A stretch of 64,000 nt of DNA from Candidatus Bathyarchaeia archaeon (GTDB lineage Archaea; Thermoproteota; Bathyarchaeia; Bathyarchaeales; Bathycorpusculaceae), in assembly GCA_049512075.1 (NCBI GenBank), contig JBEKXL010000012.1, positions 1 to 64,000 of the forward strand. The letters run 5' to 3'. Positions 591 through 48,633 of this stretch are shown piece after piece. The position numbers and the translations under genes are program-made. The notes beneath the pieces were generated by a model, which saw nothing but the letters and a program-made list of their open reading frames with translations, made no database searches and was not told the DNA's origin. Numbering within the stretch: the stretch's first letter is position 1; the number at the start of each line of letters is the position of its first letter.

Positions 591-818
591 ACCCTCCACC
601 TCCAGTGTACGGCCGCTTTCTCCTTGCAAATGAATCAGAATACGATGTTAACGAGGGCAAAGTTGATGGCCTATCAGCCGCGCGCGTTGGACTTGGCCCC
701 GTTTGGGGTTCAATCCCGGCACGTCTGCACGTCGTTTATGATGGAACTCTTTTCTATAGCCAATCATAGAAAAAGTGAAATACTGCGCGCTGTAAATATA
801 ACCTGAATGTGACAGTCT

Positions 819-3014
819 ATGAATAAACGAGTCGCACATTCAATGATTTTGCTGCTTTTTGTTAACATATTGGTTTTAATTTCCAGATCAGCAGTAGCTC
901 AGGGAAGTCAGTCTCATTCAGGCCCATATTTGACGGTTGAGCCTCAAAACATCACGTTTGGTCCTGGACCCGCAGTAGGCCAAGAATTCACGATAACTGT
1001 AATGCTGCATAACGTCACCACCGCCAACGTTCCGGCCGGATTGGCTGGGCTCGAATTTTGGCTTGGTTGGGACTCAACGTTGATTCAGCCTGTAAACTTC
1101 ACTGACATGCTGGGCCAGCCGGGCGGAGTGTTGGCTGGTCCGGAGAGTTCACTGCTCTATATTACGAGTGCAGGCTTCTATCTGGCAGACGGATTCACAA
1201 AGGTAAGTAGCCCTCCGTATTCTAATGCCGCCCAATACGAAGTTGCGGCTGCGTCAACATGTGGGTGCATGGGATGGTGGGGGAATGGTATAGCGGCCGA
1301 GATCACATTTCAGGTGGTCAGTCAACCACCTTCGCCTACTAATTCGACTGTTGGCTTTATCTTCACAGACCTGGCTGACAGAAACACTGGACCTGTTGCC
1401 GTAGATTCTGAAAATGGCTACGTCTCAATTCTACCACAGTCTCCAACATCCGTTTCCTGTTCACCCAACCCTGCTTCCATCTTCCACAACGTTACCTGTA
1501 CGGCCACCGTCTCTAGGGTTAACCCAACGGGCACTATCACTTGGAGCACGAGCAGTGTTGGGGGGAGCTTCAGCCAGTCGGTCTGCACCTTGTCCAATAG
1601 AACCTGTTCTACCACGTACATCGACAACCTCACCGGCTGTGTAACCATCGCGGCGAGCTACAGTGGAGACTCGAACAACACGCCCAGTAGCGGCAGCACC
1701 AGCTTGACGGTCACGTCAAGCGGGCCTCTCTATTACAGCCAAAACTACACGAGCGTTCAAGCCGCAATCAACGCTGCGCCATCCGGAGCGAACGTCATAA
1801 TTGCCCCTGGCTTCTACGGCGAGTCTCTAACAATTAACAAGACGTTGACGATTATAGGTGAAAAAGACCCGCCCGTCTACGGGGGAGGAGCTTCAAGCAT
1901 CTATCTTACGTTGGGGTCTGGAGCGTCGGGCTCGACTGTTACGGGAATCGAGATAACCAACGTGCCCGAGGGCATACTCGTCGATAACGCCAGCAACTGC
2001 AGAATCTACGGCAACATCATGGCTTCCATAGGCAGCAGCGGAATCGTGCTTGAGGGAAACAACGCGACGGACAACATCATATTCGACAACATTTTCCAGG
2101 ACACGCCGACTCCGATCAACCTGACAGCTTCCGCAAGCGGCAACATCATATACGGCAACATAATCACCTCGCAAACCAGCGTGACCCTCAACATTGGAGC
2201 AGATGGAAACGTTGTCTACGGAAACTCCATGTCAGGAAACCAAATCCTATTGAACATGACGAACTCGAACGCCAACATTTTCTACCACAACAACTTCTTG
2301 GCCACCGCCCAATTAACCGTCCTAGCCACTGGAAACAGCACCTGGGACAACGGCTATCCCTCCGGCGGAAACTACTGGAGCGACTATTTGAAGAAACATC
2401 CTAACGCTGCTGAAATCGATAGTTCAGGTATTTGGAATATACCTTACCAAGTCGACAGCAACAACACGGATCATTACCCGCTGCTAAAGCCTTGGACAGT
2501 GGCGTCTGGCCACTGCGTCGCGGTCATCAGTGTCGTGGCGGCAAAGACCGTGATTGCGCAGGGCTTCAACTGCAGCCTAACGGTCTGCGCGGCCGACAAC
2601 GGCGAGTACGCTGAGTCGTTCAGCGTTACCGCGTACGCAAACGCCATGGGCATAGGCTCTCAACAGGTCAGCGGTCTGAATGCATCGTGTGGGATGGTTC
2701 TCAGGTTCGCGTGGAACACTGCGAGCCTCGTCTACGGAAACTACACGGTAAGTGCTTATGCACAGCCTGTTGCAGGCCAAACTGACATGTCAGGCAACGG
2801 CTTCACTTTGGGAACGGTGAAGGTTACGATTCCAGGCGACATCAACGGCGACTTCAAAGTCAGCCTCTCAGACCTGTCGCTACTAGCAAAGGCCTACGGC
2901 ACCACACCGGCCAGTCCAAAGTGGAACCCCAACGCAGACATAAACAGCGACGGCAAAGTCAGCCTATCCGACCTATCCCTACTAGCAAAACACTACGGAC
3001 AACACTATCCATAA
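819..3014 (+). CDS. Secreted modular protein: cohesin-like, Ig-like, NosD/PbH1 beta-helix, CARDB-like, C-terminal dockerin
   Basis: Signal peptide; NxIYGN repeats; WDNGYPSGGNYWSDY; GDINGDFKVSLSDL...NADINSDGKVSLSDL. Confidence 0.8.
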   Translation: MNKRVAHSMILLLFVNILVLISRSAVAQGSQSHSGPYLTVEPQNITFGPGPAVGQEFTITVMLHNVTTANVPAGLAGLEFWLGWDSTLIQPVNFTDMLGQPGGVLAGPESSLLYITSAGFYLADGFTKVSSPPYSNAAQYEVAAASTCGCMGWWGNGIAAEITFQVVSQPPSPTNSTVGFIFTDLADRNTGPVAVDSENGYVSILPQSPTSVSCSPNPASIFHNVTCTATVSRVNPTGTITWSTSSVGGSFSQSVCTLSNRTCSTTYIDNLTGCVTIAASYSGDSNNTPSSGSTSLTVTSSGPLYYSQNYTSVQAAINAAPSGANVIIAPGFYGESLTINKTLTIIGEKDPPVYGGGASSIYLTLGSGASGSTVTGIEITNVPEGILVDNASNCRIYGNIMASIGSSGIVLEGNNATDNIIFDNIFQDTPTPINLTASASGNIIYGNIITSQTSVTLNIGADGNVVYGNSMSGNQILLNMTNSNANIFYHNNFLATAQLTVLATGNSTWDNGYPSGGNYWSDYLKKHPNAAEIDSSGIWNIPYQVDSNNTDHYPLLKPWTVASGHCVAVISVVAAKTVIAQGFNCSLTVCAADNGEYAESFSVTAYANAMGIGSQQVSGLNASCGMVLRFAWNTASLVYGNYTVSAYAQPVAGQTDMSGNGFTLGTVKVTIPGDINGDFKVSLSDLSLLAKAYGTTPASPKWNPNADINSDGKVSLSDLSLLAKHYGQHYP

Positions 3015-7906: not shown

Positions 7907-7958
7907 GCCCTCGTGCGCGCACAACGTTTATAGATAAACGCATTCTTAATTCTAGACA

Positions 7959-11020: not shown

Positions 11021-11541
11021 AGGGCTGGCCTGAAGGAACAACTGCGAAGTCGTATCCTGGAAAATCACGATGTGCCCATTTTCGGCTTGTGTGCGCTGAC
11101 GTACCCTACCCACCGGTCCACTATATGATCTGAATATGATTGGACAAACATGTGTGTTAGACCAACTGAGATGAGTTTGAGTAGCGCGTCGCGACCAGTC
11201 TTGATGAAAAATACATGCGGCACGAAATAGTGCTATCATTTATGAGAAGGCAGTTGCTATCCACATTACGGAGTTGACTGCGGAAAAGTTCAGCATTCTT
11301 GACTAGACTGCATTAAAGCCAGCGCGCTACTTCTTTGAAAACCTTACGATATGCAACGTTCCATGCAGCCTACTTAGAGAGTTCATGCATATAGTTGTGT
11401 GGCCAAGTGTCAAGGAGGGATAAGCGGAGCAATTCAAGACTTGATGAGAAGAGAAACCCTGAAACAAAAGAAAATAGGCACCATTGCTGATGCAATCAAA
11501 AAGACTTAACGCGCTATTCGTATGGGCTATCCTTTCATGGA

Positions 11542-12042: not shown

Positions 12043-12406
12043 CTTTTCCCAACTCCATTCCTAAACATGTCTTTGCGCATTGCACACAATAATCTGTAAT
12101 CGAACGTCTCTTTTTAGGTTTCACGTTACTATAACATGCTAGACCGAATATGATTCAACATCAAGCGTGCATGCATGTTCCTCAATCCGGTTTTCGAGTG
12201 TGACGGTAGTTGGGTCGCACCGTTTTTTAGACACTGACTTCTCGTATCGCGCATGCTTGGAATTCGAGCCCTTGCTCTTGAGTACTCAATTTCGTGGTTA
12301 TTTCGAGGTTCAATTTTCTTGTGTTTTCTTTCGCGTGGGCGCCACAGGATCTGACATAAGGGAAGCGGTTGCCTAGTAGTTTCGCGCGCGCTAAGCCAGT
12401 GCGCTT

Positions 12407-13015
12407 GTGCGTACTATCTTCCCTAAATGCGCGATAGTTTTAGTACTGATTTCAGCATACAATGATAAGGGTTTCTCAGCATTGCCGCAAAATTCTGGAG
12501 ATTCTGGCTCGATACTCTGGACAGGCAAACCCTGGATACTGCCTAGTGCAGTGACTGGAACCGTACTGATCATTGTGGTCGCCGTCGTGATATCTTGGCT
12601 CGAACTCTCGTATGATATAGCGCACACGATTCCATATCTGCAGAATCCGATTCCGAATACTCAGATTGTGTTGTGGATTGATGTGGTGATTTTCTTGGTT
12701 TGGGTGCTTAGCATGGCGCACCTGCTGCTGATAAGGGCTTCAAACACCTATGTTCTCAGGGATGATAGTTTGGAAATAAGGTTTGGAATCTTGACTTCAA
12801 AATCGACTGTAATCTCTCCTTCAGGTTTTTCAGATTTGGAAGTAATCAGATCGATTTCTAATAGAATCGTGAACTCCGGAGACATGATCATTCGCACTCA
12901 AAGCGAAACCGAAAGCAACCTAAAGATGAAAATGATTTGCAGTCCGATGAAAGTTGCTTCCCAAATAAGGGAAGTCATGGCTAGACCAATAGTTAGGATC
13001 GAAGGGAAAGAATAG
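12407..13015 (+). CDS. Membrane protein with bacterial PH (bPH_2) domain
   Basis: Two TM helices, then YVL...LEIRFGILT...GDMII. Confidence 0.65.
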   Translation: MRTIFPKCAIVLVLISAYNDKGFSALPQNSGDSGSILWTGKPWILPSAVTGTVLIIVVAVVISWLELSYDIAHTIPYLQNPIPNTQIVLWIDVVIFLVWVLSMAHLLLIRASNTYVLRDDSLEIRFGILTSKSTVISPSGFSDLEVIRSISNRIVNSGDMIIRTQSETESNLKMKMICSPMKVASQIREVMARPIVRIEGKE

Positions 13016-13176
13016 CGCGCGCGCGTGACTAGTGCCCGCGAAGAGATATAAGGCTTAGGACCCGTGCTGCAATGTTTACTGGGTTCAAAAGAAATGGGCA
13101 AACGAAGAGGAGCAGCGGAAATATTGATGTTAGCCAAGGCTTGGCTATGGTGTCTTCTGGTTGCGGGCTCGCTGAT

Positions 13177-14828: not shown

Positions 14829-14993
14829 TAACCGCGTCCCTCTTTATCCTCATTGCGCATAATCCATATATAAGTTATCTAAACGCCCGCTTCGCTGAGG
14901 GCATATTGATGCAAAACTTCTTGCCAACGACAAATTGGTTCTCAACAGGACTTTGCAGGAGAAGAATCCTCGTCAGTGCGCGCTTTGCTCGGG

Positions 14994-15254: not shown

Positions 15255-15317
15255 CTGTGTAGACGAGTTGGGTTATTTGAGGCTTTTGAATGGGGGCATC
15301 AACGCGCGCCTTGTTTC

Positions 15318-17553: not shown

Positions 17554-17882
17554 TTACCCTTTGCGTTTTCGGAAGATTTTGGCGTTGTCAAAGTCGCAGA
17601 CATACTCGAAGCCTGCTTCCACCAGTGCGCAAGTGTCGACTGTGGTTTTGGCTACTTTTGAGACGTATTCCTGTTCGCCTTTGAAAACCTCCTCTGCCAG
17701 GTGCACGTAAACGAGAGTATTCTTGATGTTTTTGTGGCCTAGGAGCTGCATTACGTGGACGATGTCTTTTGTTCGATGATACTCCAAGGTCGCTTTCCAA
17801 TGTCGCAGTGTCTTGAAGGTTATGTTCCTGAGTCTGGGATTTCCAAGCTTCTGAGCTATGTTTCTTCTTTGTCGCGCGCGCG
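17554..17882 (-). pseudogene. Tyrosine integrase C-terminal remnant, convergent on the tRNA-Leu 3' end
   Basis: TFKTLRHW...LLGHKNIKNTLVY catalytic motifs; N-terminal part absent. Confidence 0.85.
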
Positions 17883-18046
17883 AATCTTCCATACTAGCTC
17901 ATGAAGAGAATTGAGCGCGCGCTAAGGCAGGACGCCGAGAAAACCTGAAGGCTATTTTGTCATTTTAAGTTCCCGAATAATCCAGACTGCATATTTCCAG
18001 CGCGCCTTTCCCAAAGACGGAGAAAATGGAGGTTATGTTGGCTTTG

Positions 18047-19101: not shown

Positions 19102-19249
19102 AGCGCGCTAGGCCGTTGCTAAATTCGGACAAAAATGGATTTTAATGGGTCTGAGCTTTTTTCTTGTCAAGTGTCTCGATGTTTTGACGGAAGGATAGTT
19201 GTCGAATAAAATCCATCAAGGTCTCAATTTAGCAACAAGCTGGCGCGCC
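19102..19249. mobile_element. GCGCGC-bounded inverted-repeat element A (MITE-like)
   Basis: Ends aggccgttgctaaattcggacaaaaatggatttta and (reverse complement) agcttgttgctaaattgagaccttgatggatttta; flanks AGCGCGCT and GGCGCGCC. Confidence 0.7.
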
Positions 19250-19706
19250 AATGCCCTCAGGTCTCCCAGACGTGAGAAACCGTCCGCATGCTCGTTTGCT
19301 TCTTCAATGTTTGTCACACACACAGCAACATTACATCTGACCTTACAATTGTGGAGTAGGATGGCTGCTTTGAAGGGCAGACCAGCCTGTTTTCTCCATG
19401 ATTTGTTACAAAGCATCATTACAAATGGCGTTACAACTGAAAAGAGGGGGGGTCGACGACAAGCATCACAAAACAACATCGCATTTGACGTAGATAATGG
19501 AGGGAGCGGTCAACCTTGAAGGATACGGTGCGTTTCTGCTGAAGCAGAGCGCAAATTCATTGGCTCACGTTTTCGGATGTCAGAGCCCCAACAGCGCGCG
19601 CAGGCTCAAAGATGCGCGTGTGCCCCGAACAACCACTAATTTAATATTTAAAAGGAAGAATTCGGTTCTAGAAGATCGAATATTGATTTGAGGAAGCGCG
19701 AACACT

Positions 19707-20972
19707 ATGGAAAAAGAACCCTCTGATATTGACAAAGCCATAACCGAATTGGTCATGACCGACGATTCAGCGCAAAAGAACAAGTTGGCCAAATCCATTT
19801 TTGAAGTTGCTCACAGGGAAGGAATCTACTCGTCCAGCATCTATGAATTCTACATGGCTCGGGGCAGGGGAGAATTCAAAGGTTTCACGGTTCCCGCGAT
19901 AAACCTCCGAAGCATGACCTACGACTTGGCTCGCGCGATATTCAGAGTAGCAGAGAAAAACGGTTCCGGCGCGTTCATCTTTGAGATTGCCAGGTCGGAG
20001 ATGGGCTACACCAATCAACTGCCGACAGAATATTCAAGCGCCGTCCTAGCAGCAGCGATAAAGGAAAGCTACTCTGGCCCGGTATTCATCCAAGGCGACC
20101 ATTTTCAGGCTAACACCGCGAAATACAAGGAAAATCCAGACAAAGAAGTAGAAAGCCTAAAGGCGTTGATCGCCGATGCAATACGCTCAGGTTTCTACAA
20201 TATCGACATCGACTCTTCAACGCTCGTTGACTTATCCAAGCCCGATTTAAAAGAACAACAGCTCCTGAACTACGAAGTCTGTGCAAAACTCACCCAGTTC
20301 ATCCGTAGCATCGAGCCGAAAGGGATTACCGTTTCAGTGGGCGGAGAGATAGGCGAGATTGGGCATCAAAATTCTACGCCGGAAGACCTGCACGCGTTTA
20401 TGGCCGGCCTTGAGGAGAGGCTACCGAACGGATTAGCAGGAATAAGCAAGATTTCAGTTCAGACCGGAACGACTCACGGGGGCGTGGTCCTGCCAGACGG
20501 CTCAGTTGCCCAGGTAAACCTTGACTTTAACACTCTAAAGGTTCTCTCAGAGATTGCCCGCCGAAAATACGGGTTGGCAGGAGCCGTGCAGCACGGAGCA
20601 TCAACCCTGCCTTCTGAGGCATTCCACAAATTCGTTGAATGCGAGACCGCTGAAGTGCACCTAGCCACGGAGTTTCAGAACATGATTTACGAATCAAAAC
20701 ACTTTCCATCATATCTCAAGAAGAGAATCTACGAATGGCTAAAAATCAACGCCGCAAACGAGGCTAAACAGGGCGAAACCGAGGAACAATTCCTATACAA
20801 AACAAGGAAGAAGGCGTTAGGCCCGTTCAAGAAAGAGATCATGGGTCTGCTGCAAAAAACCCGCGACGCGATTGCAGCGGAAGTCGAGAGCAAATTTGAT
20901 TTCCTCTTCAAGCAGCTTAACGCTGTGAACAAAAGGGACTTGGTAGACAAATACACCCGCGCCGTCGTCTAG
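19707..20972 (+). CDS. Class II fructose-bisphosphate aldolase family protein
   Basis: QGDH, GEIGEIG, QTGTTHG and QHGAS. Confidence 0.88.
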   Translation: MEKEPSDIDKAITELVMTDDSAQKNKLAKSIFEVAHREGIYSSSIYEFYMARGRGEFKGFTVPAINLRSMTYDLARAIFRVAEKNGSGAFIFEIARSEMGYTNQLPTEYSSAVLAAAIKESYSGPVFIQGDHFQANTAKYKENPDKEVESLKALIADAIRSGFYNIDIDSSTLVDLSKPDLKEQQLLNYEVCAKLTQFIRSIEPKGITVSVGGEIGEIGHQNSTPEDLHAFMAGLEERLPNGLAGISKISVQTGTTHGGVVLPDGSVAQVNLDFNTLKVLSEIARRKYGLAGAVQHGASTLPSEAFHKFVECETAEVHLATEFQNMIYESKHFPSYLKKRIYEWLKINAANEAKQGETEEQFLYKTRKKALGPFKKEIMGLLQKTRDAIAAEVESKFDFLFKQLNAVNKRDLVDKYTRAVV

Positions 20973-26290: not shown

Positions 26291-26366
26291 CGCGCATACA
26301 CGCAGGACTAATATCCGAAAAAAAGACCGTGGGCGCTGGCAAAAAGCGCGCGAGTAAGAAAGGCGG

Positions 26367-30736: not shown

Positions 30737-30995
30737 AATATAAGATTTGCAATGTCTATTTCAGCTTTCAACTTTTTGTCGCCGTCTATTTCAAGTCCTG
30801 AATGATCCTGCTGGGACAAGGCGCCTTACTGTTTAAGGCATAGTTTTCTTGAATGAGAAAAAACAGAGGATGTTTATTGTTTAGGCTGGTGTGGGCAAGA
30901 GCGCGCGCTCGTGTCAAGGTCACGCGTGCGGGCAAGTGTTGATTGCGCATGCCAGGATGGAACGAAGAAAGGTTAGGGCTGGCTCATTCGATTCT

Positions 30996-31433
30996 TTAGG
31001 TTGCAGGGCCATGGGTTGTCCATTTTGGAACGCGCGCGTCTGGAACGCAATCAACCTTGGAAAGATAAGGCTTGATGTCGACGATTGGCGAACCCTTTGC
31101 AGCGTCAAGTCCCTTTACTGTTAAGACGCACTCTTCAATCTTCATCAGTTCCACCACACACAGTCCTATCGGATTCGGACGTGAGGGGCTTCTGCATGCG
31201 AACACTCCTGTCTCAACTTTTACCGCGTGTTTTTTCGGAAAAACCAGCAGAGTTTTCCTCTCCTTCTCACTGTCGCGCAGATGCATCCAGTAAAGAGTGA
31301 TCAGGTGGGAAAAACCCGTTATCTCTTTCAGCCCAGCGCAGAACTCTGGAAAAATGTGCACCTCAGCCTCTTGTTCACCAGCTTTCATGACGGTTCCGAT
31401 GAAGTAGACCTCTCCCTTAACGCTCATTCTCAT
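30996..31433 (-). CDS. tsaA: tRNA m6t6A37 methyltransferase TrmO/TsaA
   Basis: [16 protein letters not shown] and VDIKPY. Confidence 0.88.
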
Positions 31434-35185: not shown

Positions 35186-35914
35186 ATGTCAATGTTTGCA
35201 GCACCAGGTGCTTACGACCGTGCTATAACTGTTTTTTCACCGGATGGGCGGCTTTTTCAAGTTGAATATGCAATGGAACTTGTCAACCGCGGAGCCACAA
35301 TCCTTGCGATACGATGCTCAGAGGGAGTGGTTCTTGGAGCTGAAGAAACCGTTGATCCACTGGAAGAAACGGAGTATTCATGGAAAATCTTTCGAATAGA
35401 CGATCATGTTGGAGCAGCCATTGTTGGTTTAAGCTCGGACGCGCGCATACTCATAGATCAGGCGCGAGTCATGGCGCAGTCTAACAAGCTAACGTATGAT
35501 GAACCGATCGATGTTGAAGTCGTGACTAAGAGAATATGCGACATAAAGCAGCTTTACACACAACACGCGGGTGTAAGACCCTTCGGCGTGTCAATGGTGT
35601 TTGCCGGAGTGGACAAAACTGGAAACCGCGTGTTCGGAACCCACCCTAGCGGAACCTACAGGGGCTACAAGGCCAGAGCGGAAGGCGCAGGAAGAGAAAC
35701 GGTGTTCAACATCCTGAAAGAGGAGTACAAGGAGGAGATGGGCCTCAAAGAAACCACGAGGCTCACGGTGAAATGTTTGGCCAAAGCCTTGGAAGCGAGA
35801 CAACTGCCGACGAGAATCAAAGTAGCAGTGGTGTCCTCAGAAACCAAAAAACTGGAAATGCTGAGCGAAGAGAAAATTGAGGGTATCCTGAAAGAGCCGG
35901 GCGCGGGCAAGTGA
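35186..35914 (+). CDS. psmA: Proteasome alpha subunit
   Basis: YDRAITVFSPDGRLFQVEYA and RPFGVS. Confidence 0.97.
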   Translation: MSMFAAPGAYDRAITVFSPDGRLFQVEYAMELVNRGATILAIRCSEGVVLGAEETVDPLEETEYSWKIFRIDDHVGAAIVGLSSDARILIDQARVMAQSNKLTYDEPIDVEVVTKRICDIKQLYTQHAGVRPFGVSMVFAGVDKTGNRVFGTHPSGTYRGYKARAEGAGRETVFNILKEEYKEEMGLKETTRLTVKCLAKALEARQLPTRIKVAVVSSETKKLEMLSEEKIEGILKEPGAGK

Positions 35915-35921: not shown

Positions 35922-36611
35922 ATGAGTGATAAGTACACCGTTGCGCGTATTACAAAGGACAACGAACACTTTGAAGTGCTTGTAAAACCTCAAAAAGCCC
36001 TAGATTTTCGAATGGGAAAAATAGCGGCAATAACCGAAGTTTTAGCGGCTGAAACGATATTTTCTGACGCTAACAAAGGCACGAAACCTTCGGAAGAAAA
36101 CCTGCGCAAGGCTTTCGGCACTACGGATTCGCTGAAAATAGCTGAGACCATACTCACAAAGGGAACGTTGCAGGTGACCACCGAACAACGCAGGAAAATG
36201 ATTGAAGACAAGAGAAAACAGATAGTGGATTTCATATCAAGGCAGAGCGTTGACCCCCGAACCAACCTTCCGCATCCGCCGACGCGAATAGAAAACGCTA
36301 TGGAACAAGTTCGCTACTCGATAGACCCGTTCAAGCCTGTGGAAGAACAGGCTAAAGAAATAATCAAGCTTCTACGGACGATTCTGCCACTCAAAATGGA
36401 ACAGGTAACCGTAGGCGTCACCATACCCGCGGAGCATTCGGCAAAGGCCTACGGAACAATCAAGGGATTCGGAACGATAAAACGTGAAGAATGGCGCGCA
36501 AACGGTTCATGGTACGGAGTCCTAGAAATGCCGGCAGGAGTCTACGCCCCATTCCTAGATAAACTCGGAGAAATAACCAAGGGGACCGGAGAAGCAAAGA
36601 TTAACCCCTGA
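35922..36611 (+). CDS. Ribosome maturation factor SBDS
   Basis: FEVLV and DPRTNLPHPPTRIENA; conserved operon position. Confidence 0.95.
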   Translation: MSDKYTVARITKDNEHFEVLVKPQKALDFRMGKIAAITEVLAAETIFSDANKGTKPSEENLRKAFGTTDSLKIAETILTKGTLQVTTEQRRKMIEDKRKQIVDFISRQSVDPRTNLPHPPTRIENAMEQVRYSIDPFKPVEEQAKEIIKLLRTILPLKMEQVTVGVTIPAEHSAKAYGTIKGFGTIKREEWRANGSWYGVLEMPAGVYAPFLDKLGEITKGTGEAKINP

Positions 36612-39548: not shown

Positions 39549-39782
39549 CTCAGATTCCGGCGAGAGTTCTCCTCCAACTATCATGCTTTCATTCCTTGAG
39601 AGAACCTCGATTTTTCCAGCTGAACACGCCGCTAGTCATGTATCCTAATGAAACAACTAGCGACCTGCTATTTTCAAAGCAGAAATAACCAGCAACAGAG
39701 AAGTGAGGCGCAACGGCTTGAGTTGAGAGCCTCCGGACAATTTGAGAAAATGTTAAAATGTCGGATGAATTGCCGATTAATT

Positions 39783-39946
39783 TGCGCGCATGCCTGTTCC
39801 TAAATTCATTCGCGAGCTGGTTTTTGTTATAGGCTCGCTTGGTTCGTGGATGACCGTGTGACTATTGATGCGAGAATTATCGTCTGTAGGACATGGACCA
39901 ACTCGTCACGCCCAAAAAAGGGAATTTAGGAACACGCTAGCGCGCT
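39783..39946. mobile_element. GCGCGC-bounded inverted-repeat element D (MITE-like)
   Basis: gcgcgc-a-tgcctgttcctaaattc ... (reverse complement) gcgcgc-t-agcgtgttcctaaattc. Confidence 0.75.
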
Positions 39947-39950
39947 ACTT

Positions 39951-39990
39951 GTCTGGGGGTAAAGTCTACTCCCAAACCCAAACCAAATCC
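39951..39990. repeat. GGGGTAAAGT repeat, inverted relative to copies at 41434-41456 and 43762-43800
   Basis: gtctgggggtaaagtctactccc vs reverse complement gtttgggggtaaagttttatccc (19/23). Confidence 0.6.
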
Positions 39991-40228
39991 AACCTGACGC
40001 CGTGCCTTATGGAAGTAAAGTGCGTTATTGAGAGGCAATATATGCGGTTCAGCACATAGTTCTTGATCTCTGCAAAAGAGGCGATATTGCGGAATTCAAG
40101 GCATAATAGGGTAGGTATATAGGTAGTATCGGAATCGAGTATACGTTCTGCAGCGTTAACTTATAAAGGCTCGTTTGAGCAACTAGAAGCATACATCAGA
40201 TATGAAATGGGCAGGGTAGTCATATGGC

Positions 40229-41428
40229 ATGAAGACCGACTCAAGCTCTGACGGGTCTCGGCGCAACAGGCTGTTTCTGCCAGCATTGGCTGCTGCCAGC
40301 TTTGCTTCAGGCCCGATTACGGTCTTGGGAGCCCTTCTCCTAATTGACATAGGCAACACGTTTGGTACGTCAGTTAGTATTACAGGTCAGATTTACACGT
40401 TATATTCTATTGCTGCAGTCATCTTTGCGTTGCTGACAGGGGTCTTAAGTATTAAATTCAAGCATAGGTCGTTGCTCCTCGTAGGCTTGTTTTTGATGGC
40501 GATCTCGGCTGCAGGTTGTTTCTTAGCTCTGGATTTCGTCACGTTGCTTGCATTCTATTCTTTGAGTGGAGCTGGATACGCCATTGTCAACCCTATGGCG
40601 TTCACCTTAGTTGGAGAGCATTTTCCTTTGGAAAAGAGGGCAAATGCGATTGGGTTGATTGTTGCGGGCGGGGCGCTGGTGTACGTCATAGGGGCTCCGG
40701 TGATTGCGGTGATGTCAGGCTACAGAGGCTGGCGTTTTCCCTTTCTGGGTTTTGTCCTGCCGATTCTGCTTATAGGTCTGCTATTGGCTTTTCTCGGTCT
40801 TCCGTCTACTTCGAACAAACGTCAAGTGCCATCAGAGGCGAAAGCTAATCCGAGTCCTAAGGCGTTTTTCCTGAACAAATCTGTTGCTGCTTGCCTGATT
40901 GGCGACACCCTTCGTGCCGCAGCTTTTGTTGCAATCATGCTTTACGCAACGTCATTCTTCAGACAGCGATTCTTGGTTCCTACAGATTCTGCCTCCCTTA
41001 TACTGTTGGGTGGAGCATTGTCCTACGTCGTAGGCAGCTTGACCACTAGTCGGTTCGTAAATAGGATGGGAAGAAAGTCTTCAGCTGTTCTTACTGCCTT
41101 GTTATCAGGAACATTCACCGTTTCGTTTGTTTTCGTCCCCAACGTCTGGATTTCTTTAATACTAATGTTGATTGCCAGTTGGTTCTTCGGCATGGTTGCT
41201 TCATCAGCTAACAGTCTGATTCTTGAGCAGATTCCAGAGCTGAAGGGTACTTTGATGTCGATTGATACTGCGGTACTGAATGCTGGTTCAGCCTTTGGAA
41301 CTACTGCAGGAGGAATGGCTTTACTATATTTTGGCTATGAAGGTCTGGGCAGTGTTCTGGGAACTGTAGGCATTGTTGCTGCATTGGTTTTCTATCTACT
41401 CGCAAAAGATCCAACCAAGCCGCCATAG
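40229..41428 (+). CDS. MFS transporter
   Basis: About 12 TM helices; PLEKRANAIG, GWR and NRMGRK motifs. Confidence 0.9.
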   Translation: MKTDSSSDGSRRNRLFLPALAAASFASGPITVLGALLLIDIGNTFGTSVSITGQIYTLYSIAAVIFALLTGVLSIKFKHRSLLLVGLFLMAISAAGCFLALDFVTLLAFYSLSGAGYAIVNPMAFTLVGEHFPLEKRANAIGLIVAGGALVYVIGAPVIAVMSGYRGWRFPFLGFVLPILLIGLLLAFLGLPSTSNKRQVPSEAKANPSPKAFFLNKSVAACLIGDTLRAAAFVAIMLYATSFFRQRFLVPTDSASLILLGGALSYVVGSLTTSRFVNRMGRKSSAVLTALLSGTFTVSFVFVPNVWISLILMLIASWFFGMVASSANSLILEQIPELKGTLMSIDTAVLNAGSAFGTTAGGMALLYFGYEGLGSVLGTVGIVAALVFYLLAKDPTKPP

Positions 41429-41542
41429 TTTACGGGATAAAACTTTACCCCCAAACCCAAACATATTTTTATTACGACGACGCGACGACGAACGCATAGT
41501 TTACGGACGCATAGTTTATCGTAAAATGATACAGACCGATTT

Positions 41543-41704
41543 TCATTTACATATTAATGGTTTTGTGGTTTCTACTGTCAATTTTCCATTGGGCTTTTCC
41601 TTCATTGCATTTTTGTAGAAGCCACATTCCAGATGATTTCTGTCATTGCAGTTGATTCCTGTTATTTTGCACCTGTCAAATAAGGGACATTTAGGCTGAG
41701 TCAT
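41543..41704 (-). CDS. Small Cys-rich hypothetical protein (53 aa)
   Basis: MTQPKCPLFDRCKITGINCNDRNHLECGFY...; purine-rich upstream sequence. Confidence 0.45.
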   Translation of the reverse strand: MTQPKCPLFDRCKITGINCNDRNHLECGFYKNAMKEKPNGKLTVETTKPLICK

Positions 41705-41862
41705 TTGTTCTTCCTTTTCTTAAAGGTCTTAACTAACCGTTCTTTTTCAAAATCATAAATAAAACCCTTGTTAATCCAGTCTCCCGTTTCCCAATCATAA
41801 TTATATTTGTCTCTGGCACGCGCTAGAACTCAGAAAACTATCACGCAGTTAAAAAAGGGGAA

Positions 41863-42170
41863 CTATTTAAGTTCTACAACTAAGAGGTCTACGTCAGTTT
41901 TCCCTGGGTTCTCGGCTTCGTGAGATTGGGCTTTAAGGAAGATTGCCTGACCAGTCTTCAGGTCTAATACCTCTGTTTTCCTGAAGATGTCAGTTTTAGT
42001 TTGCCACCTTTGAGAACATATACGACATGGTCTGGATGGCTGTGCATTACTGTTTTGTCGTTTGGTTTGAACAGAACCTGAAGTACACGCACGCGGTCGT
42101 TTTCCATTATGGACTTAGAGACGTTTTCCGCCTTCGTTTCCTCATTCCTTCTTAGACTCTCCGCTTGCAT
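41863..42170 (-). pseudogene. Cupin protein, frameshifted at an A run (about 41976-41979)
   Basis: ENDRVRVL...MHSHPDHVVYVL, continuing in another frame as EVLDLKTGQAIF...HEAEN...LVVELK. Confidence 0.8.
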
Positions 42171-42673
42171 ATTTAAGAATATGTGACCGTAACCACACAG
42201 CAAAAACGCGTTAAAATTCTGTAAGCTGGAAAAGCCACGACAGATAAGTTTACAGTATCGACTTGACAGAACCCCTATAAGAAACAATGGACATAGATAG
42301 ACTCGGTAAGAAGATGCCAAAGAAAAGAGCACACGCAGGACTCAAGAAGAAGAAACATAAAGAAGCATAATCAACGCGCACGCGCCAATAGAATAAGAAC
42401 AATATCGCCTCCAATACCCGACTTGTTATAGGGTGAACCATCACCCGAAAAGAGACCAGAACCTAAAATGAAATGAGGGAAGATGGTAGCTTTACTCACT
42501 AGGGAGAAAAGGGGAGAAGAGAGAAAAACTTACCACCATTTCCCTCAGTCAATTTCGACTATACACATGTTGGTTACTTTTAAGTTTTTCTTCGATTTTT
42601 TGAATCGTGCGCGCTAGCCCAGATGGAAAAAGTTTAATTAAATGCAATAGTCTAAACTCCCCCACAGACAAAT

Positions 42674-43195
42674 ATGAACAGCGTCGTTATTCTCTGTGGA
42701 GGAAATAGTTGTGGAAAAACAACTACTCTGAAAGGCTTTTTCAAAGTGAAAGGTAACCACAGTCCAGAATCCTACATTGAAAGGAAACTTGATGGTAGGA
42801 GAATATGTGCTGTCAGTTTTAGTTCTCCTCAAGAACAGGAACCGTTCTGCGAGGTCAGACTTGTCAACGATAACATCAAGAATCGAATAATAGAGTGCGA
42901 GAAGAATACTAATGGCGAACCATACATTTTGATTATCCCTTTCACGATGAGCGGGAGTAGAAAGAAAAGAAAGAAAATCAACGAGGACTGCATTCTCAAA
43001 CCCATTGAAAAATTGAGGGAAAAGTTCAAAGTCTTTGTTATTTACCTAAGGAAAACCAATGCTCGGAACCTCGAAGATAAAGATGCTTTGATGAAACGGA
43101 TTGCATTGAAAATGGTCGAAACCACAAAAGATGATTATGATAAGTCAGCAGAGTTAGAGAAGTACCTTAAGGGAGTAGTCATAGAATCACATTGA
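42674..43195 (+). CDS. Small P-loop NTPase-like hypothetical protein
   Basis: GGNSCGKTT Walker A; AT-rich. Confidence 0.6.
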   Translation: MNSVVILCGGNSCGKTTTLKGFFKVKGNHSPESYIERKLDGRRICAVSFSSPQEQEPFCEVRLVNDNIKNRIIECEKNTNGEPYILIIPFTMSGSRKKRKKINEDCILKPIEKLREKFKVFVIYLRKTNARNLEDKDALMKRIALKMVETTKDDYDKSAELEKYLKGVVIESH

Positions 43196-43906
43196 TTGTC
43201 TACATCCAACGACAGTTAACAAGGAAACAATCCCATGAGAGCGCGCGCCTTACGGAACCGCGAGCGCGATGGGAAGCTGTGGTACAATAGGCATCATTTC
43301 TGCTTCATTGCTTCTTTCTTCTTTTTTTCTTCTTTCATCCTTTCTCTCTTTCTTTTAGTTGTCATCGCGTCACGTTCTATTTACCATATATCTCTAACAA
43401 TTTCGTATACTTGTTGTAAAGAATATCTATTTCTATGTTTCCTTGCTAATTTTCCTATTTCACGCGCCCTTACGGAACCCGCGCGCGTCTATAGCAGCAT
43501 AAAGTAGTCCGTCCTTGGATAGCGAGCTTTAACTCAACGGTTTCTCATAAGACTTAGCTGGTGAAAGTCGAAATAATCATGGTGCCTATGATGATAATCA
43601 CGTCAGTATGAAGGGATTTAAGTTTGGTCCTTTTTTCCCAAGATGATTTGACATTAAATTGATTCTGAGGCGCCACAACACCATCTTCTAAAGTAGGCTC
43701 ACAATGAGCTTGCAGAGCAACTGAAAGAAGAGAAAAAACTCGGTGAAGGAATAAAGAGAAATTTGGTTTGGTTTGGATAAAACTTTACCCCCCCCAAACC
43801 CTGCCGAAGCAGCAAAGAAAAACAGAGGCCCAGCAAAATCTGCCAAACCGCTTTATATCTTCATCTCTTCAACCTTTAGCTAGCTAGGGGGCAAAACTGT
43901 CGGTGA

Positions 43907-44053
43907 TTAAAAAGCCTTCAGAGCCTTCATTTGATTAGATAACTTGAGTTTAACACAGTTAGTGCAAACCGCGACAAATACCTTCTCATTAGGAAAACCC
44001 ACTGCATACGACACTATTTCTGCTCCACACTTGGGGCACTTCACTTGCGACAT
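43907..44053 (-). CDS. Small zinc-ribbon protein (48 aa)
   Basis: CPKC...CTNC; GAGG upstream of the ATG. Confidence 0.6.
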   Translation of the reverse strand: MSQVKCPKCGAEIVSYAVGFPNEKVFVAVCTNCVKLKLSNQMKALKAF

Positions 44054-44235
44054 TCTTCTACCTCAGCTATCCGACTGATCAATCAAATTGAAACAGACAC
44101 TTAAACGGTATTTCAAGCAGCAGAATATTACCAAAAAAGTGCGCGCGCAAACCCAAGTTTTGATTTTTCGGCAGTTCGTCATCAAAAATGTTAATTAATG
44201 GCCCAGCTTATTGCAGTGCAGATGGAAGGATAGGC

Positions 44236-44933: not shown

Positions 44934-45913
44934 TCAACCTTTTGGACGCGGTTGACGCCAAGTTTGTTGTTCTGCTGTGCCACCATAATGCCGATCCAGA
45001 CGCAATCTGTTCGGCGTATGCCCTTTCAAGCTTGCTAAGACAGTCACGACCACAAATGATTGTTGAGGTTGGGGCTGCACATGGGATAAGTCGACTTTCA
45101 AAGCATCTCCTCGAACATTTGCCAGTAGAAGTGAAAACACAACCGAGTGTAGAGAAAGCACAGGCGATAGTGTTGCTCGACACGAACACTGTCCAGCAGT
45201 TGGACGATTTGGCTGATAGAGTTATGAATTCGAAGGCTCCACTCATCGTTGTTGATCATCACATCGTTCACCCCGAAACCAAGCAGCTGGCGAAGATTTC
45301 TATAACCGATGAGGCGGCATCATCCACGTGCGAGATCGTGTACGACTTCTACAGGCAAACGGGAATAAAACCTGGCGGAAACGAGGCCAAGGCCCTGTTC
45401 TTAGGCATAGCTTTTGACACGCGGCATTTTATCTTAGCCAACTCGTCCACGTTGAAAAACATCGTGGGACTCATCGATGCCGGCGTGAACGCCCAAGAGG
45501 CACTCTCACTGCTCTCGTTGCCCATGGATTTCTCCGAGCGCGTGGCGAGGCTTAAAGCTTCTAGGAGAACCAAACTCTTCAAGGTCGGAGAATGGATAAT
45601 CGCTTTGTCACACGTCAGTGCCTACGAGGCTTCAGCCGCGCGGGCGATGGTAGAGCTGGGGGCCCACGTTGCTGCCGTAGCCGGGGAGAGAGATGGAAAC
45701 TTGGAAATTAGCCTGCGCAGTTCAATTGACTTCTACAAGAAAACGGATGTTCACCTCGGAAAAGACGTGGCGAAGCCGTTGGGCGAATACCTTCACGGTA
45801 TGGGCGGAGGACACGCCACAGCAGCGGGAGTCAACGGGAAAGGCGACATAGAAATCGGGCTCAAACGTTGCCTGTGGCTTTTGAAGGAAAAACTGGGTAA
45901 CCATAATTATTAG
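44915..45913 (+). CDS. DHH family phosphoesterase (NrnA-like)
   Basis: HHNADPDA, DHH, DT, SLRS and GGGHATAAG. Confidence 0.92.
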   Translation: MSFTEIINLLDAVDAKFVVLLCHHNADPDAICSAYALSSLLRQSRPQMIVEVGAAHGISRLSKHLLEHLPVEVKTQPSVEKAQAIVLLDTNTVQQLDDLADRVMNSKAPLIVVDHHIVHPETKQLAKISITDEAASSTCEIVYDFYRQTGIKPGGNEAKALFLGIAFDTRHFILANSSTLKNIVGLIDAGVNAQEALSLLSLPMDFSERVARLKASRRTKLFKVGEWIIALSHVSAYEASAARAMVELGAHVAAVAGERDGNLEISLRSSIDFYKKTDVHLGKDVAKPLGEYLHGMGGGHATAAGVNGKGDIEIGLKRCLWLLKEKLGNHNY

Positions 45914-45967
45914 GCCGCAAGTAACTGGTACGCGCGCGAAAAGGCTTTCCTGAGAGTCTTACAAAGC

Positions 45968-46094
45968 GGTGCCGACGGGAAAGTACCTGGCCCCGCCCAC
46001 CAATGGCGGGCCCTTTCGGGCAATCGCCGCGCGGCCTTGGTTTTCCTCAGATTTTCTCCTCGCCCCGGGCCGCGTTTTGGCGAAGCGGAAGGGC
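45968..46094. ncRNA. Candidate GC-rich structured RNA (long hairpin)
   Basis: Nested pairings GCCCTTTCG/CGGAAGGGC, TCGCC/GGCGA and GCGCGGCC/GGCCGCGT. Confidence 0.4.
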
Positions 46095-46098
46095 TTAT

Positions 46099-46403
46099 AG
46101 CGCGCTGCCTTGTCCCGAAATTGGTGTAAAGTGGTCATAATTCTTGTTTTCGGGTTTAGGGGCAGTTTTGAGGCACATATGTGTTTTTAGCCCTTCTGTG
46201 TGCCTTGACTTTCAAGATGGGCTAAGTGTAGCCTCAACGGCTTATGGGAATAACTACTTCCATCCGGCTTTGATGGAACCCCCTGATTTGCCGGCTTTCA
46301 GCGCGGTCAGGATTTGCCTATGAAACAAGCCCAAATCAAGCTGCAATAGACAAAAGAAGAATAAAAACCATTTTAGACCATTTTAGGGACAAGCCAGCGC
46401 GCT
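46099..46403. mobile_element. GCGCGC-bounded inverted-repeat element B (MITE-like)
   Basis: 31/37 inverted identity: tagcgcgctgccttgtcccgaaattggtgtaaagtgg vs cagcgcgctggcttgtccctaaaatggtctaaaatgg; AGCGCGCT on both sides. Confidence 0.78.
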
Positions 46404-46487
46404 GGACCTAGAACCTTCTTCTGTAGCTGATAATGCAGAGAATTAATTACCCAAAAGAGTACAATTATAGTGAAAGGAAGAGTGTAA

Positions 46488-48584
46488 ATGAAGAAGCTAG
46501 TTTCTGGAATGATGTTTACGTTGCTTGTGCTTGGCACGTTAACTTTAACTCTTAACGTTCAGCCTGCAATATCTTCGCCTGCAACAATCACGGTTCCCGA
46601 CGATTACGCGACGATACAGGCTGCAATAAACGCAGCCAATGCTGGAGACACAATATACGTACGCAATGGAATCTATCCAGAGCACATAGAAGTCAACAAA
46701 ACCGTCACGTTAATAGGCGAAAGCAACCAGAACACCATCATAGAAGCCCACACAGTAGACAGTTTTCACATTGGCGTTCACATTGGCGCCAGCAACACTA
46801 TAGTTGAAAACTTTAGAATCGTCCCGCCTAATTCAACTGACTTTAAGGAAATTCCAACCCTTGTCTTCATCGATGGACGCACAACTCCTTGCTCTAACGG
46901 CACAATAAGAAACTGTGTCTTCGTATTCGCAACCGATGTGGAAGCAGGTGCAGACGCGATAGACATCTATAGCTCCGCAAACAACACCGTCACTGGCAAC
47001 CTGATAACCATTGCAGACAAGACTGACGCTGGAATAGCAGTGCTGGTAGGCTCTGCTGGCAACCTAATAGACAACAACACTATAACGGGAGGTTGGGAAG
47101 GCATCACCATAGACTTCGCCGACAACAACATTCTGTCAAACAACTACATCACCGACCAAACTCCTTTGTCCCAGCCCGGTTTTCCGCTCTCGTCTGGTGC
47201 AGTGTACTTAAGTGTGACTTCTGGCGACACAATCAAAGGAAACACACTCGTAAACAACACCATCGCCATAAACCCCGACAACAAAGTAGACAACTGCCTC
47301 ATCTACAACAACAACTTCATCAATAACACCCAGCAAGCACTCGTCGGAAACACCGTGACGCGCATAGCCTGGGACAACGGCTACCCTTCTGGCGGAAACT
47401 ACTGGAGTGGCTATAGCGGCATAGATTCATACAGTGGTCCTAATCAGAACGTCCCAGGCAGCGATAAGATAGGCGACCAACCATACATTATTGATGCAAA
47501 CAACACAGACCATTATCCACTTATGTTACCATACGGTGCACGCGCGCCTTATTTTAGCGTTGAAACTCAGAACGTGACGATGGGTCCAGGGCCGGCAGTC
47601 GGGCAATACTTTACGATAACTGTAAAGCTCCACAACATCACATCAGATAATGTTCCATATGGTCTTGCCGGTGTTGCGGTTGGTTTACAGTGGAATAACA
47701 CTCTCATAGAACCAACGGCGTTCGATGACAGAATAGGGCAACCGGGCGGAGTGCTCGTGGGCTCTGTGATCTACGGCCTAACGCCTGGTTTCTATAATAA
47801 ATCGGGCAATCGTATCTCTTCACCGCCATACACTAATGCCACGAATTTCGGAGTTCTGGCCGCATCGACAGCTGGTGGATGGTGGGGCAATGGCACAGTT
47901 GCCGTGATTACCTTTAAAGTTGTATATCAACCCATCCTACCGGAGCCATCGGCCTCCTGTGGCCTAAGCTTTGTACCGGGCACGGGTGCAGGTGACACAG
48001 ATCTCGCTGAGTATACCGGCTCTAACGCGCAAGAAGTGGGTTTTGACGTGGAAAACGGTAGCTACACAATTCTGCCGTACGCGCCCAATGATACTTCACC
48101 GCCCATAACGACCCTGACGATTGGTGAGCCAAAATACGTAGATCCCGTGTCTAACGTCACCTACGTCACTCAATACACTCCTTTCACTTTGGAAGCCTAT
48201 GATAATGAGTCGGGAGTTTCATACACTGCCTATCACATATACAATTCTACGTATGATGGCGGCTGGCAGAACTACACGACACCATTCGTTCTTGGCCCAT
48301 TGAAAGATGGAACTTATACTATCGAGTTTTACAGTGTAGACAACGCTGGGAATGTGGAAGCCACAAATTCAGTGAACGTCACGTTACACTGGCTCTATGG
48401 AGACGTCAATCATGACGGAAGAGTGAGCCTAAGTGACCTTGCACTCGTCGCTACAGCTTATCGCTCACGCCCAGGCGATCCCAACTGGAACCAATACGCA
48501 GACCTCGCCCCACCGTGGGGCATCATAAGCCTGACCGACCTCGTCACAGTAGCAGTTCACTACGGCCAAACCTTCCATCCGTAA
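46488..48584 (+). CDS. Secreted modular protein: NosD/PbH1, cohesin-like, Ig-like, dockerin
   Basis: Signal peptide; VPDDYATIQAAI; WDNGYPSGGNYW; GPGPAVGQ cohesin-like module; YSVDNAGNVE; GDVNHDGRVSLSDL. Confidence 0.82.
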   Translation: MKKLVSGMMFTLLVLGTLTLTLNVQPAISSPATITVPDDYATIQAAINAANAGDTIYVRNGIYPEHIEVNKTVTLIGESNQNTIIEAHTVDSFHIGVHIGASNTIVENFRIVPPNSTDFKEIPTLVFIDGRTTPCSNGTIRNCVFVFATDVEAGADAIDIYSSANNTVTGNLITIADKTDAGIAVLVGSAGNLIDNNTITGGWEGITIDFADNNILSNNYITDQTPLSQPGFPLSSGAVYLSVTSGDTIKGNTLVNNTIAINPDNKVDNCLIYNNNFINNTQQALVGNTVTRIAWDNGYPSGGNYWSGYSGIDSYSGPNQNVPGSDKIGDQPYIIDANNTDHYPLMLPYGARAPYFSVETQNVTMGPGPAVGQYFTITVKLHNITSDNVPYGLAGVAVGLQWNNTLIEPTAFDDRIGQPGGVLVGSVIYGLTPGFYNKSGNRISSPPYTNATNFGVLAASTAGGWWGNGTVAVITFKVVYQPILPEPSASCGLSFVPGTGAGDTDLAEYTGSNAQEVGFDVENGSYTILPYAPNDTSPPITTLTIGEPKYVDPVSNVTYVTQYTPFTLEAYDNESGVSYTAYHIYNSTYDGGWQNYTTPFVLGPLKDGTYTIEFYSVDNAGNVEATNSVNVTLHWLYGDVNHDGRVSLSDLALVATAYRSRPGDPNWNQYADLAPPWGIISLTDLVTVAVHYGQTFHP

Positions 48585-48633
48585 AAACCGCGCGCGCCTA
48601 TACACCTACAGCTATCCATACCGCTCGCGCTAG

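Follow-up and report, generated by a model that had tools for sequence, protein, structure and literature searches.

Short alternating C/G runs of a bathyarchaeial genus occur at the tips of an IS5/IS1182-like element family, alone between genes and at breakpoints of synteny

The window analysed here is a stretch of 64,000 nucleotides on contig 12 of a Candidatus Bathyarchaeia archaeon assembly (GCA_049512075.1, hereafter G000; 2.73 Mb, 86 contigs, 47.5% G+C, 99.76% complete). Its genes include those for proteasome, exosome, SBDS, prefoldin and TackOD1-domain proteins, a set of thaumarchaeal character together with an intron-bearing tRNA, and Rfam matches in the window are limited to two tRNAs. 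Metagenomic sequencing runs containing this stretch come from peat, wetland and freshwater. Short alternating runs of C and G, typically GCGCGC or slightly longer, are scattered between the genes. We describe these runs and their relation to a family of IS5/IS1182-like insertion sequences (IS) and the corresponding MITEs (miniature inverted-repeat transposable elements). An earlier note on this DNA had listed 30 such runs as markers of gene and module boundaries, and had suggested either a dispersed recombination or insertion site or the footprints of an element family, driving gene gain and loss, with cyanobacterial HIP1 as an analogy. Each of the 30 positions was indeed found to hold an alternating C/G run of 6-11 nt.

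The window contains 39 maximal alternating C/G runs of at least 6 nt, with lengths of 6-11 nt; nine of them were missing from the earlier list (19932, 22187, 27169, 31031, 35440, 36494, 45637, 46028 and 47541). Coding and non-coding classes were assigned with our own ad hoc dicodon gene caller (2,579 genes, 77.6% coding). On this basis, 30 runs are intergenic, one lies over a stop codon (13015) and 8 are coding. The 30 runs of the earlier list are all intergenic or on this stop-codon edge, and eight of the nine unlisted ones are coding. The 52-64 kb block was correctly described as run-free, since the last run ends at 48597. GCGCGC was observed 48 times in the window, whereas 100 shuffles that preserve dinucleotides gave 14.99 ± 4.15 (maximum 26). 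Non-coding window DNA (14,420 bp) holds 31 runs, compared to 5.18 ± 2.21 (maximum 13) in 300 first-order Markov simulations.

The enrichment extends to the whole genome. GCGCGCGC is the most frequent octamer (646 copies), AGCGCGCGCGCT the most frequent 12-mer (50 copies), and GCGCGC ranks first among all hexamers by maximal-order Markov ratio. Genome-wide, 1,019 runs are non-coding (1.67/kb), 407 are coding (0.19/kb) and 19 cross from one class into the other. Non-coding copies of GCGCGC number 1,508, with 114, 280 and 694 expected from Markov models of orders 1, 2 and 3, and those of GCGCGCGC 576, with 6.4, 24.7 and 112 expected. The first-order excess is thus 13-fold for GCGCGC and 90-fold for GCGCGCGC, and the enrichment suspected in the earlier note survives both dinucleotide and higher-order correction. 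Coding GCGCGC was not enriched across the genome (347 observed, 410 expected at order 1); therefore the coding runs at 19932 and 22187 are probably due to chance.

The distribution was compared among 31 related genomes, five of which belong to the same genus (G000-G004). These five contain 168-646 copies of GCGCGCGC each, and the others 0-30, except G018 (227 copies, with 209 of the reversed-pattern control) and G024 (53, with 26 of the control). The trait is therefore restricted to one genus.

Runs are present in all types of spacer, at 2.02 per kb in convergent, 1.79 in tandem and 1.38 in divergent ones. Their distance to the upstream stop codon follows a flat distribution, and few of them lie in the last 50 nt ahead of a start codon or in divergent spacers of short length. 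Complementarity around the runs is 0.39-0.46 at ±1 and stays at background (0.22-0.27) from ±2 to ±12. A terminator or promoter signal was ruled out, as the runs occur in all three spacer types and keep no fixed position or orientation relative to genes. A larger hairpin or a REP-like stem-loop was also ruled out, because palindromy reaches only 1 nt past the run. The positional pattern is that of something tolerated in spare DNA, and not that of a terminator, a promoter or a stem-loop repeat.

Clustering of the 2,890 run flanks of the genome placed 177 of them in repeat families. At 127 ends, a run adjoins the inverted-repeat core TGTYCC.AAAWT; the run is exactly GCGCGC at 92 of these ends and the outer flank is TA at 63, individual IS copies having no clear target-site duplication. 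These ends define 38 paired elements of 111-1,089 bp. Among them, MITEs of 142, 163-165, 192 and 283-284 bp share the inverted repeats of an autonomous 1.1-kb member (G000:C32:7469-8577), which encodes a DDE_Tnp_1 + DUF772 transposase (PF01609 6e-17 and PF05598 5.6e-6 in a 291-codon frame). An intact 348-aa transposase open reading frame (ORF) lies on G000:C39. The top NCBIfam match is IS1182 (77.6 bits, cut-off 270), and IS5_4 scores 50.6 bits (cut-off 140). Judged from these scores, which are below the equivalog cut-offs, the transposase is predicted to be a distant IS1182 member or to form a separate group. The 1,943 homologous metagenome proteins are named only 'transposase', with no IS family name.

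The transposase is found at 70% identity or more in G000, G001, G003 and G004, and as paralogues only 41-45% identical in G002. Outside the genus, only relatives with 30-42% identity were detected, in 4 of 26 genomes. The sequence GCGCGC-TGSC-TTGTCCC.AAATT bounds both element ends in G000, G001 and G003. The G002 paralogue (41% identical transposase) ends in GCGCGC-N4-TGTYCC on both sides, and one end was found at the G004 locus. Thus, the terminal inverted repeats of this genus-specific IS and its MITEs have GCGCGC as their outermost part. Four MITEs lie in the window (Table 1). When element flanks were searched in G002, both were collinear for only 1 of the 13 MITEs with a flank found, and that single site carries a different element in G002. 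MITEs sit at the edges of variable DNA.

The sister genome G002 is 93-97% identical to G000 and is collinear with the window from 3148 to 41451, then again from 43782 to past the window end. At 8 of the first 10 breaks, a run was found exactly at the junction in G000 or G002. In an initial sample, runs lay at 51 of 150 breakpoints compared to 1-6 for controls, and 2.4% of random non-coding positions were equally close to a run. When 847 kb of G002 were used, a run lay within 3 nt of 109 of 305 synteny-block ends, in either genome, compared to 4-14 after shifts of 75-300 nt. Runs thus occur at breakpoints at about ten times the control frequency, and breakpoints are not independent of the runs; independence would have refuted the proposal of the earlier note. 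Moreover, non-coding run density is 2.30/kb in G000-specific DNA and 1.05/kb in aligned DNA. The proposal that runs bracket single accessory genes also gained statistical support: runs occupy both flanking spacers of 29 of the 158 G000 genes missing at the syntenic place in G002, whereas among the 482 shared genes this holds for 22 (Fisher p 3e-7 with an odds ratio of 4.7, adjacent genes not being independent).

Among 39 simple indels between the two genomes, there are 13 in which a run either lies at a junction or makes up the entire short allele. In 11 others, direct repeats of 8-19 bp are present and the junction is run-free, as with ordinary IS or integrative elements. In six alleles, a bare run replaces 144-1,312 bp. 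One of them is the helicase-like gene G000:C13:23643-24850 (GKT and DEAH motifs, identified by eye), in which an internal deletion of 776 bp is sealed by (CG)4. Because the missing DNA is the interior of this gene, the run-bearing allele is derived. The G002 copy is frameshifted and split over several frames. Two filled/empty pairs were found: where G002 has a MITE with GCGCGC on either side, G000 has a bare (GC)5, and opposite the window MITE at 23737, G002 has a bare GCGCGC. Two other insertions have a run or MITE tip at one end, and their empty sites are run-free. In some cases, inserted segments have runs at both ends and no inverted repeats. Finally, G000 and G002 carry different inserts at the same place at window positions 25046-25445 and 39698-39923.

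A more recent event was found in a metagenome strain, X5, whose contigs are about 0.4-0.5% divergent from the window. One X5 contig (depth 42.5) joins 25003 to 27269, omitting 2,265 bp, with GCGCGCG at the joint; with its flanks, the joint reads T(GC)5T. G002 retains 25445-28233, i.e. most of the segment missing in X5, so the deletion is the derived state. The X5 joint is thus a recent deletion sealed by a run. Two other X5 joints (14174-18277 and 30274-30507) were set aside owing to short sides or low depth. Together with the six alleles described above, this gives seven sites where a bare run stands for a segment. Five of the seven scars are C-first (CG)n. At all seven sites, the segment-keeping allele has no MITE or IS at either breakpoint. 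X5 contigs also cover both MITEs of the 20-kb stretch compared.

Non-coding runs comprise 102 on element tips and 910 that stand alone (solo runs). Their lengths are distributed as 368 of 6 nt, 133 of 7, 251 of 8, 165 of 9, 97 of 10, 2 of 11 and 1 of 12; the lengths of coding runs decay monotonically. Among even non-coding runs of 6, 8 and 10 nt, 273, 224 and 82 are G-first compared to 95, 27 and 15 C-first. The dominant solo form is A(GC)3-5T, and lengths break off abruptly at 10 nt. This limit is not an assembly effect, because contig ends fall in other IS repeats and not at runs. TA flanks are found at 26% and 22% of solo runs, with a background of 5.2%, as at element ends. In the blocks aligned between G000 and G002, 47 of 82 G000 runs are unchanged, about 8 changed in length and another 19-26, mostly 6-mers, differ by substitution; with 5-8% divergence, neutral decay would give about this degree of conservation. 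In otherwise aligned DNA, four runs (8-11 nt) are cleanly present or absent as whole units. In X5, the run at 13015 is shorter by 2 nt, indicating that slippage also occurs.

Non-homologous end joining (NHEJ) of the bacterial type, with Ku and LigD, is known in a few archaea, e.g. Methanocella. Outside the window, at C16:5124-8191, G000 has a single operon with a LigD Prim-Pol (5124-5966), Ku, and an ATP-dependent ligase with 3'-phosphoesterase side by side, the domains lying in adjacent ORFs (PF21686 3.8e-83, PF02735 1.3e-40, PF01068 2.7e-37, PF13298 1.5e-41). A second LigD_N match was noted at C11:3898-4200. The operon is present in 4 of the 31 genomes (G000, G002, G004 and G010). Neither Ku nor a LigD Prim-Pol was detected in G001 and G003, which are 77% and 93% complete, and the operon was not found in the remaining relatives searched. 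The density of GCGCGCGC is 186-237/Mb in G000, G002 and G004 compared to 112-115/Mb in G001 and G003. Operon-bearing genomes have (GC)5:(GC)4 ratios of 0.13-0.15 and those lacking the operon 0.08-0.11, a difference too weak, in a set of few and closely related genomes, to serve as a test for end joining. G010 has the operon, no close transposase, only 7 copies of GCGCGCGC and no (GC)5. As G010 has the operon with few runs, and G001 and G003 have the IS with runs, the runs follow the IS and not the repair genes, in what is a small sample of related genomes. The connection of the runs to NHEJ is thus circumstantial here.

We hold with good confidence that the runs are tied to the IS/MITE family in some way. 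The more specific reading that we favour, and consider somewhat probable, is that they are the tips of these elements and the scars of such tips. About one run in ten is still on an element end, and the others (about 910 in non-coding DNA) would be scars from element loss. An element would insert, sometimes with a deletion, and later be lost, its scar staying behind. We infer that the two palindromic, complementary tips may be rejoined with an overlap of 6, 4 or 2 nt, which would give exactly 6, 8 or 10 nt, i.e. A(GC)3T, A(GC)4T and A(GC)5T, and hardly ever a longer run. The rejoining could be performed by the Ku/LigD operon, by microhomology or by slippage. Scars would survive only where they are harmless, and this could explain the intergenic placement, the avoidance of the 50 nt or so ahead of genes and the free distance to stop codons. 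The element family would cause or accompany deletions, insertions and segment replacements, so that scars would mark the edges of variable segments and accessory genes. Direct observations of IS movements coupled to large deletions without target duplications, including an IS5/IS1182 case, are described in bioRxiv 10.1101/2024.06.02.596822.

Several points weigh against this reading. No excision event was directly caught. The two filled/empty pairs may reflect an excision footprint, but in principle they could also be read as insertions into an existing run. Only the 177 clustered flanks out of 2,890 belong to any repeat family, and run-flanked segments without inverted repeats exist. Five of the seven scars are C-first although G-first runs dominate genome-wide. 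As the segment-keeping alleles have no element at their breakpoints, such a scar needs at least two steps (insertion with deletion, then element loss), and in X5 both would have to fall within about 0.4% divergence; the presence of both MITEs on X5 contigs speaks against turnover being very rapid. Slippage by 2 nt alters run length as well, and would not alone give a hard stop at 10 nt. G001 and G003 carry runs at about half density though Ku and LigD Prim-Pol were not found there. Finally, the split between coding and non-coding DNA leans on our own gene caller.

The foremost alternative is that the runs are a preferred palindromic target of the IS1182-like family, solo runs being unused or restored targets. 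The element would enter a (GC)n palindrome and duplicate or split it, leaving GCGCGC on either side. According to the available part of PMC5678879, IS1272 (IS1182 family) targets inverted repeats or palindromes without target duplications, the model includes a route that duplicates the whole palindrome at both IS ends, and a review is cited in which some IS1182 members target palindromes. Both filled/empty pairs keep a run at the empty site, and the places shared by different inserts in G000 and G002 also fit a target. We nevertheless regard this explanation as rather unlikely, since a target-only model makes no new runs, yet runs arise opposite unrelated sister sequence, even within a gene. 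It leaves the 13- to 90-fold excess unexplained, as well as the difference between element-end runs, mostly of exactly 6 nt, and solo runs of 6-10 nt. Moreover, two empty sites are run-free, and GCGCGC is kept between transposases of 41% identity while the next 4 nt vary. The runs could instead be filler from repair of double-strand breaks by Ku/LigD, for example through reiterative or untemplated synthesis by the LigD Prim-Pol, and independently of any IS. A short self-complementary GC tract would then be added at every joint, be it a deletion, an insertion or a transposon flank. The seven deletion joints consist of a run with no element near in the other allele, segments without inverted repeats carry a run at each end, and a complete end-joining operon is present, the three operon-bearing genomes of the genus having the highest run densities. 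This origin appears doubtful to us: G010 has the operon and almost no runs, G001 and G003 have hundreds of runs and the operon was not found in them, and a constant 6-nt GCGCGC followed by a conserved inverted repeat is unlike variable filler. We know of no polymerase shown to add alternating GC in vivo. In a more far-reaching version, the end-joining machinery of the genus would tail DNA ends with short self-complementary (GC)n, making any two ends cohesive, and the IS would have evolved GCGCGC tips that exploit this in the sealing of its excision sites. Such tailing is, in our opinion, improbable; if it were true, each run would date the repair of one chromosome break, and the runs would be a genome-wide record of double-strand breaks and of the deletions and insertions arising there.

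A HIP1-like motif, maintained by methylation and biased repair or by a function in Z-DNA formation, termination or regulation, is a further alternative; the earlier note had drawn the HIP1 analogy and mentioned Z-DNA. Like HIP1 in cyanobacteria, as presented in the available parts of PMC4390886 and PMC5861425, the run is a hyper-abundant, lineage-restricted short palindrome. N4/N6-type methyltransferase genes are present in G000 (7 PF01555 and 5 PF02384 matches), but neither a C5 methyltransferase (PF00145) nor a Dam-type enzyme (PF02086) was found in this 99.76%-complete genome. Coding DNA is not enriched, conservation is near the neutral expectation and long runs arise or change as whole units. 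The presence in all spacer types, the avoidance of start codons and the lack of a preferred stop distance speak against terminators and promoters, and no stem-loop is formed; we consider this explanation very unlikely. Thus, the element-footprint part of the earlier interpretation is supported by the inverted-repeat tips, the synteny breakpoints and the bracketed strain-specific genes, and its HIP1/methylation part is not. It is just as remote that the runs are crossover sites of a site-specific or microhomology-driven cassette exchange, in which any two runs can recombine, a palindrome being both a direct and an inverted repeat, and the genes between them are moved. Such exchange would suit the bracketing of strain-specific genes (29 of 158 and 22 of 482), the runs at 36% of block ends and the segments flanked by two runs that are a single run or AGCGCT in the sister genome. 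However, no recombinase could be tied to the runs, the majority of replaced segments carry a run at one junction only or in one genome only, and deletion scars occur where the ancestral allele had no runs.

The runs and MITEs of the window are listed in Table 1.

Table 1. Alternating C/G runs and associated elements of the window, in order of position, with the state of the corresponding site in related genomes or strain X5 where compared.
Position	Feature	Context and comparison
679..686	solo run CGCGCGCG	intergenic
785..790	solo run GCGCGC	intergenic
7915..7920	solo run GCGCGC	9 nt past stop codon; same in G002, decayed in G004 and G001
11322..11327	solo run GCGCGC	substituted in G002
12383..12391	solo run, 9 nt	within 789-bp window-specific segment containing ORF 12407-13015
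13015..13025	run, 11 nt	over stop codon of ORF 12407-13015; exact end of G002 homology
14978..14983	solo run GCGCGC	G002 reads GCGCTC
15303..15309	solo run	9 nt past stop of minus-strand gene 15318-16193
17873..17882	solo run (CG)5	in window-specific segment 17519-19494
17915..17922	solo run (GC)4	32 nt from run 17873
18000..18005	solo run GCGCGC	
19103..19248	MITE, 146 bp	GCGCGC tips 19103-19108 and 19243-19248; variant inverted-repeat core CCGTTGCTAAATT
19594..19601	solo run (GC)4	G002 copy decayed by substitutions
19932..19937	CGCGCG	in aldolase gene; probably chance
22187..22192	GCGCGC	in EamA transporter gene; probably chance
23002..23011	(CG)5 alone	junction scar; G002 has 902 bp there with 272-codon ORF
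23737..23943	MITE	intact GCGCGC tip at 23737, far end degraded; G002 empty site is bare GCGCGC
24950..24957	solo run (GC)4	16 nt past stop codon; G004 homology stops at run
25004..27268	segment, 2,265 bp	methyltransferase gene 25493-26290 and neighbours; X5 has GCGCGCG instead
25337..25342	solo run GCGCGC	in 399-bp stretch unlike G002
26346..26352	solo run GCGCGCG	substituted in G002
27169..27174	GCGCGC	in weakly scored ORF 27048-27338
30901..30908	(GC)4	homology ends exactly here; G002 carries 2,433 bp at this place, with two long ORFs (read by eye as putative NfeD-like protease and stomatin-like protein)
31031..31038	CGCGCGCG	in TrmO-like gene
35440..35446	run	in proteasome alpha gene; probably chance
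36494..36499	run	in SBDS gene; probably chance
39784..39945	MITE, 162 bp	GCGCGC tips; 9-11 near-identical copies genome-wide
42609..42614	solo run GCGCGC	upstream of ORF 42674-43195
43241..43248	solo run (GC)4	followed by CTTACGGAACC
43480..43487	solo run (CG)4	CTTACGGAACC just before
44141..44148	solo run (GC)4	at start of G002 homology block
45637..45642	CGCGCG	in DHH gene; probably chance
45931..45938	solo run (CG)4	
46028..46033	solo run CGCGCG	absent from earlier list
46100..46402	MITE, 303 bp	GCGCGC tips; inverted repeat GCGCGC-TGSC-TTGTCCC
47541..47547	run	in NosD-like gene
48589..48597	solo run, 9 nt	5 nt past stop codon of gene 46488-48584

Other mobile elements are present in the same region. 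A 4.4-kb island (39757..44184), absent from G003 and G004, is flanked by the 10-bp direct repeat AAAATGTTAA and carries an MFS transporter gene. Its imperfect terminal inverted repeats, like GATGRAAYTGCCGAWTAATT, belong to a second transposon family. Just within the island, 27 nt (39784) and 36 nt (44148) from its ends, there are runs. The same type of terminal repeat bounds a 2,975-bp insertion on G000:C18. A 6-kb insertion relative to G002 (45910..51930), flanked by the 12-bp direct repeat TAACCATAATTA, contains the runs at 45931, 46028 and 48589, the MITE at 46100, a NosD-like beta-helix gene and an IS6-type (DDE_Tnp_IS240) transposase gene. A further repeat family, which has no relation to the GC runs, shares the core TTGTAATGTCAGATGTAAT and has about 25-30 copies in G000; in G003, a 326-bp insert with a variant of this core adjoins the site of window run 7915.

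Several additional features were noted. An intron-bearing tRNA at 13215-13320 was matched by Rfam and missed by ARAGORN, and G002 has a 2.65-kb insertion at its end. A tRNA-like 3' end (…GGGTTCAAACCCC…CACCA) at 17460-17518 forms the left border of a variable region, which spans 2 kb in the window and 16 kb in G002. A TATA-box-binding-protein-like family, identified by eye, has a copy at G000:C1:104458-105533 and copies in 13 other places (14 hits, 80-87% nucleotide identity), one of which is inserted beside a run relative to G002. The window encodes two large secreted NosD/beta-helix proteins (819-3014 and 46488-48584), one with a dockerin domain, which is unusual in an archaeon; related repeats are found at several of the assembly's contig ends. 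A strong N4/N6 DNA methyltransferase match (PF01555, 7e-49) was predicted at G000:C53:207-857, on a 2.3-kb contig. A search of the genome for amoA returned no match, but neither did searches of control genomes, so that this negative carries no weight.

The element family resembles IS1182/IS5-type IS such as IS1272 in its DDE_Tnp_1 transposase with N-terminal DUF772, its terminal inverted repeats and its non-autonomous copies, and also in the links of that group to palindromes and deletions, as far as the available parts of PMC5678879 and bioRxiv 10.1101/2024.06.02.596822 describe them. It differs in a score far below the cut-off, a tip that is itself a 6-nt palindrome, and hundreds of solo tip-like remnants, none being described for that family in the portions of the literature examined. 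Excision footprints of Tc1/mariner elements and Stowaway MITEs in eukaryotes also leave end nucleotides at the empty site, often with TA flanks (PMC4561436). Here, however, the host is an archaeon with an IS5/IS1182-like transposase, the remnant forms a perfect palindrome of quantised length, and excision is proposed from comparison of alleles. REP/BIME sequences are very numerous short intergenic palindromic repeats tied to RAYT transposases, and form imperfect stem-loops of 20-40 nt. The runs are likewise numerous short intergenic palindromes with a transposase family, but their palindromy ends 1 nt past the run and their transposase is a DDE enzyme. HIP1 (GCGATCGC) is, like GCGCGCGC here, a lineage-specific palindromic octamer and the commonest word of its genome; it is abundant inside genes, unlike the runs. 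HIP1 is recognised by two orphan methyltransferases (PMC4390886 and PMC5861425, in part), whereas no enzyme of C5 or Dam type was found in G000. We found no published description of such runs in a search of main texts, and the available part of a survey of integrated elements in Thaumarchaeota (PMC6563490) mentions neither 'MITE' nor 'GCGC'.

If the runs are indeed tips and scars of tips, this archaeon would carry about a thousand transposon scars of eukaryotic style, enough to make them its commonest octamer, and these would mark a third of the structural differences between close relatives. In an uncultured archaeon of peat, they would allow earlier insertions, losses and replacements to be traced by a simple sequence tag. 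The genus would also be a natural system pairing a DDE transposon with Ku/LigD end joining in Archaea. Finally, a note of caution would follow, as 'iterated palindromes' may be what mobile elements leave behind, and need not be signals for methylation or regulation.

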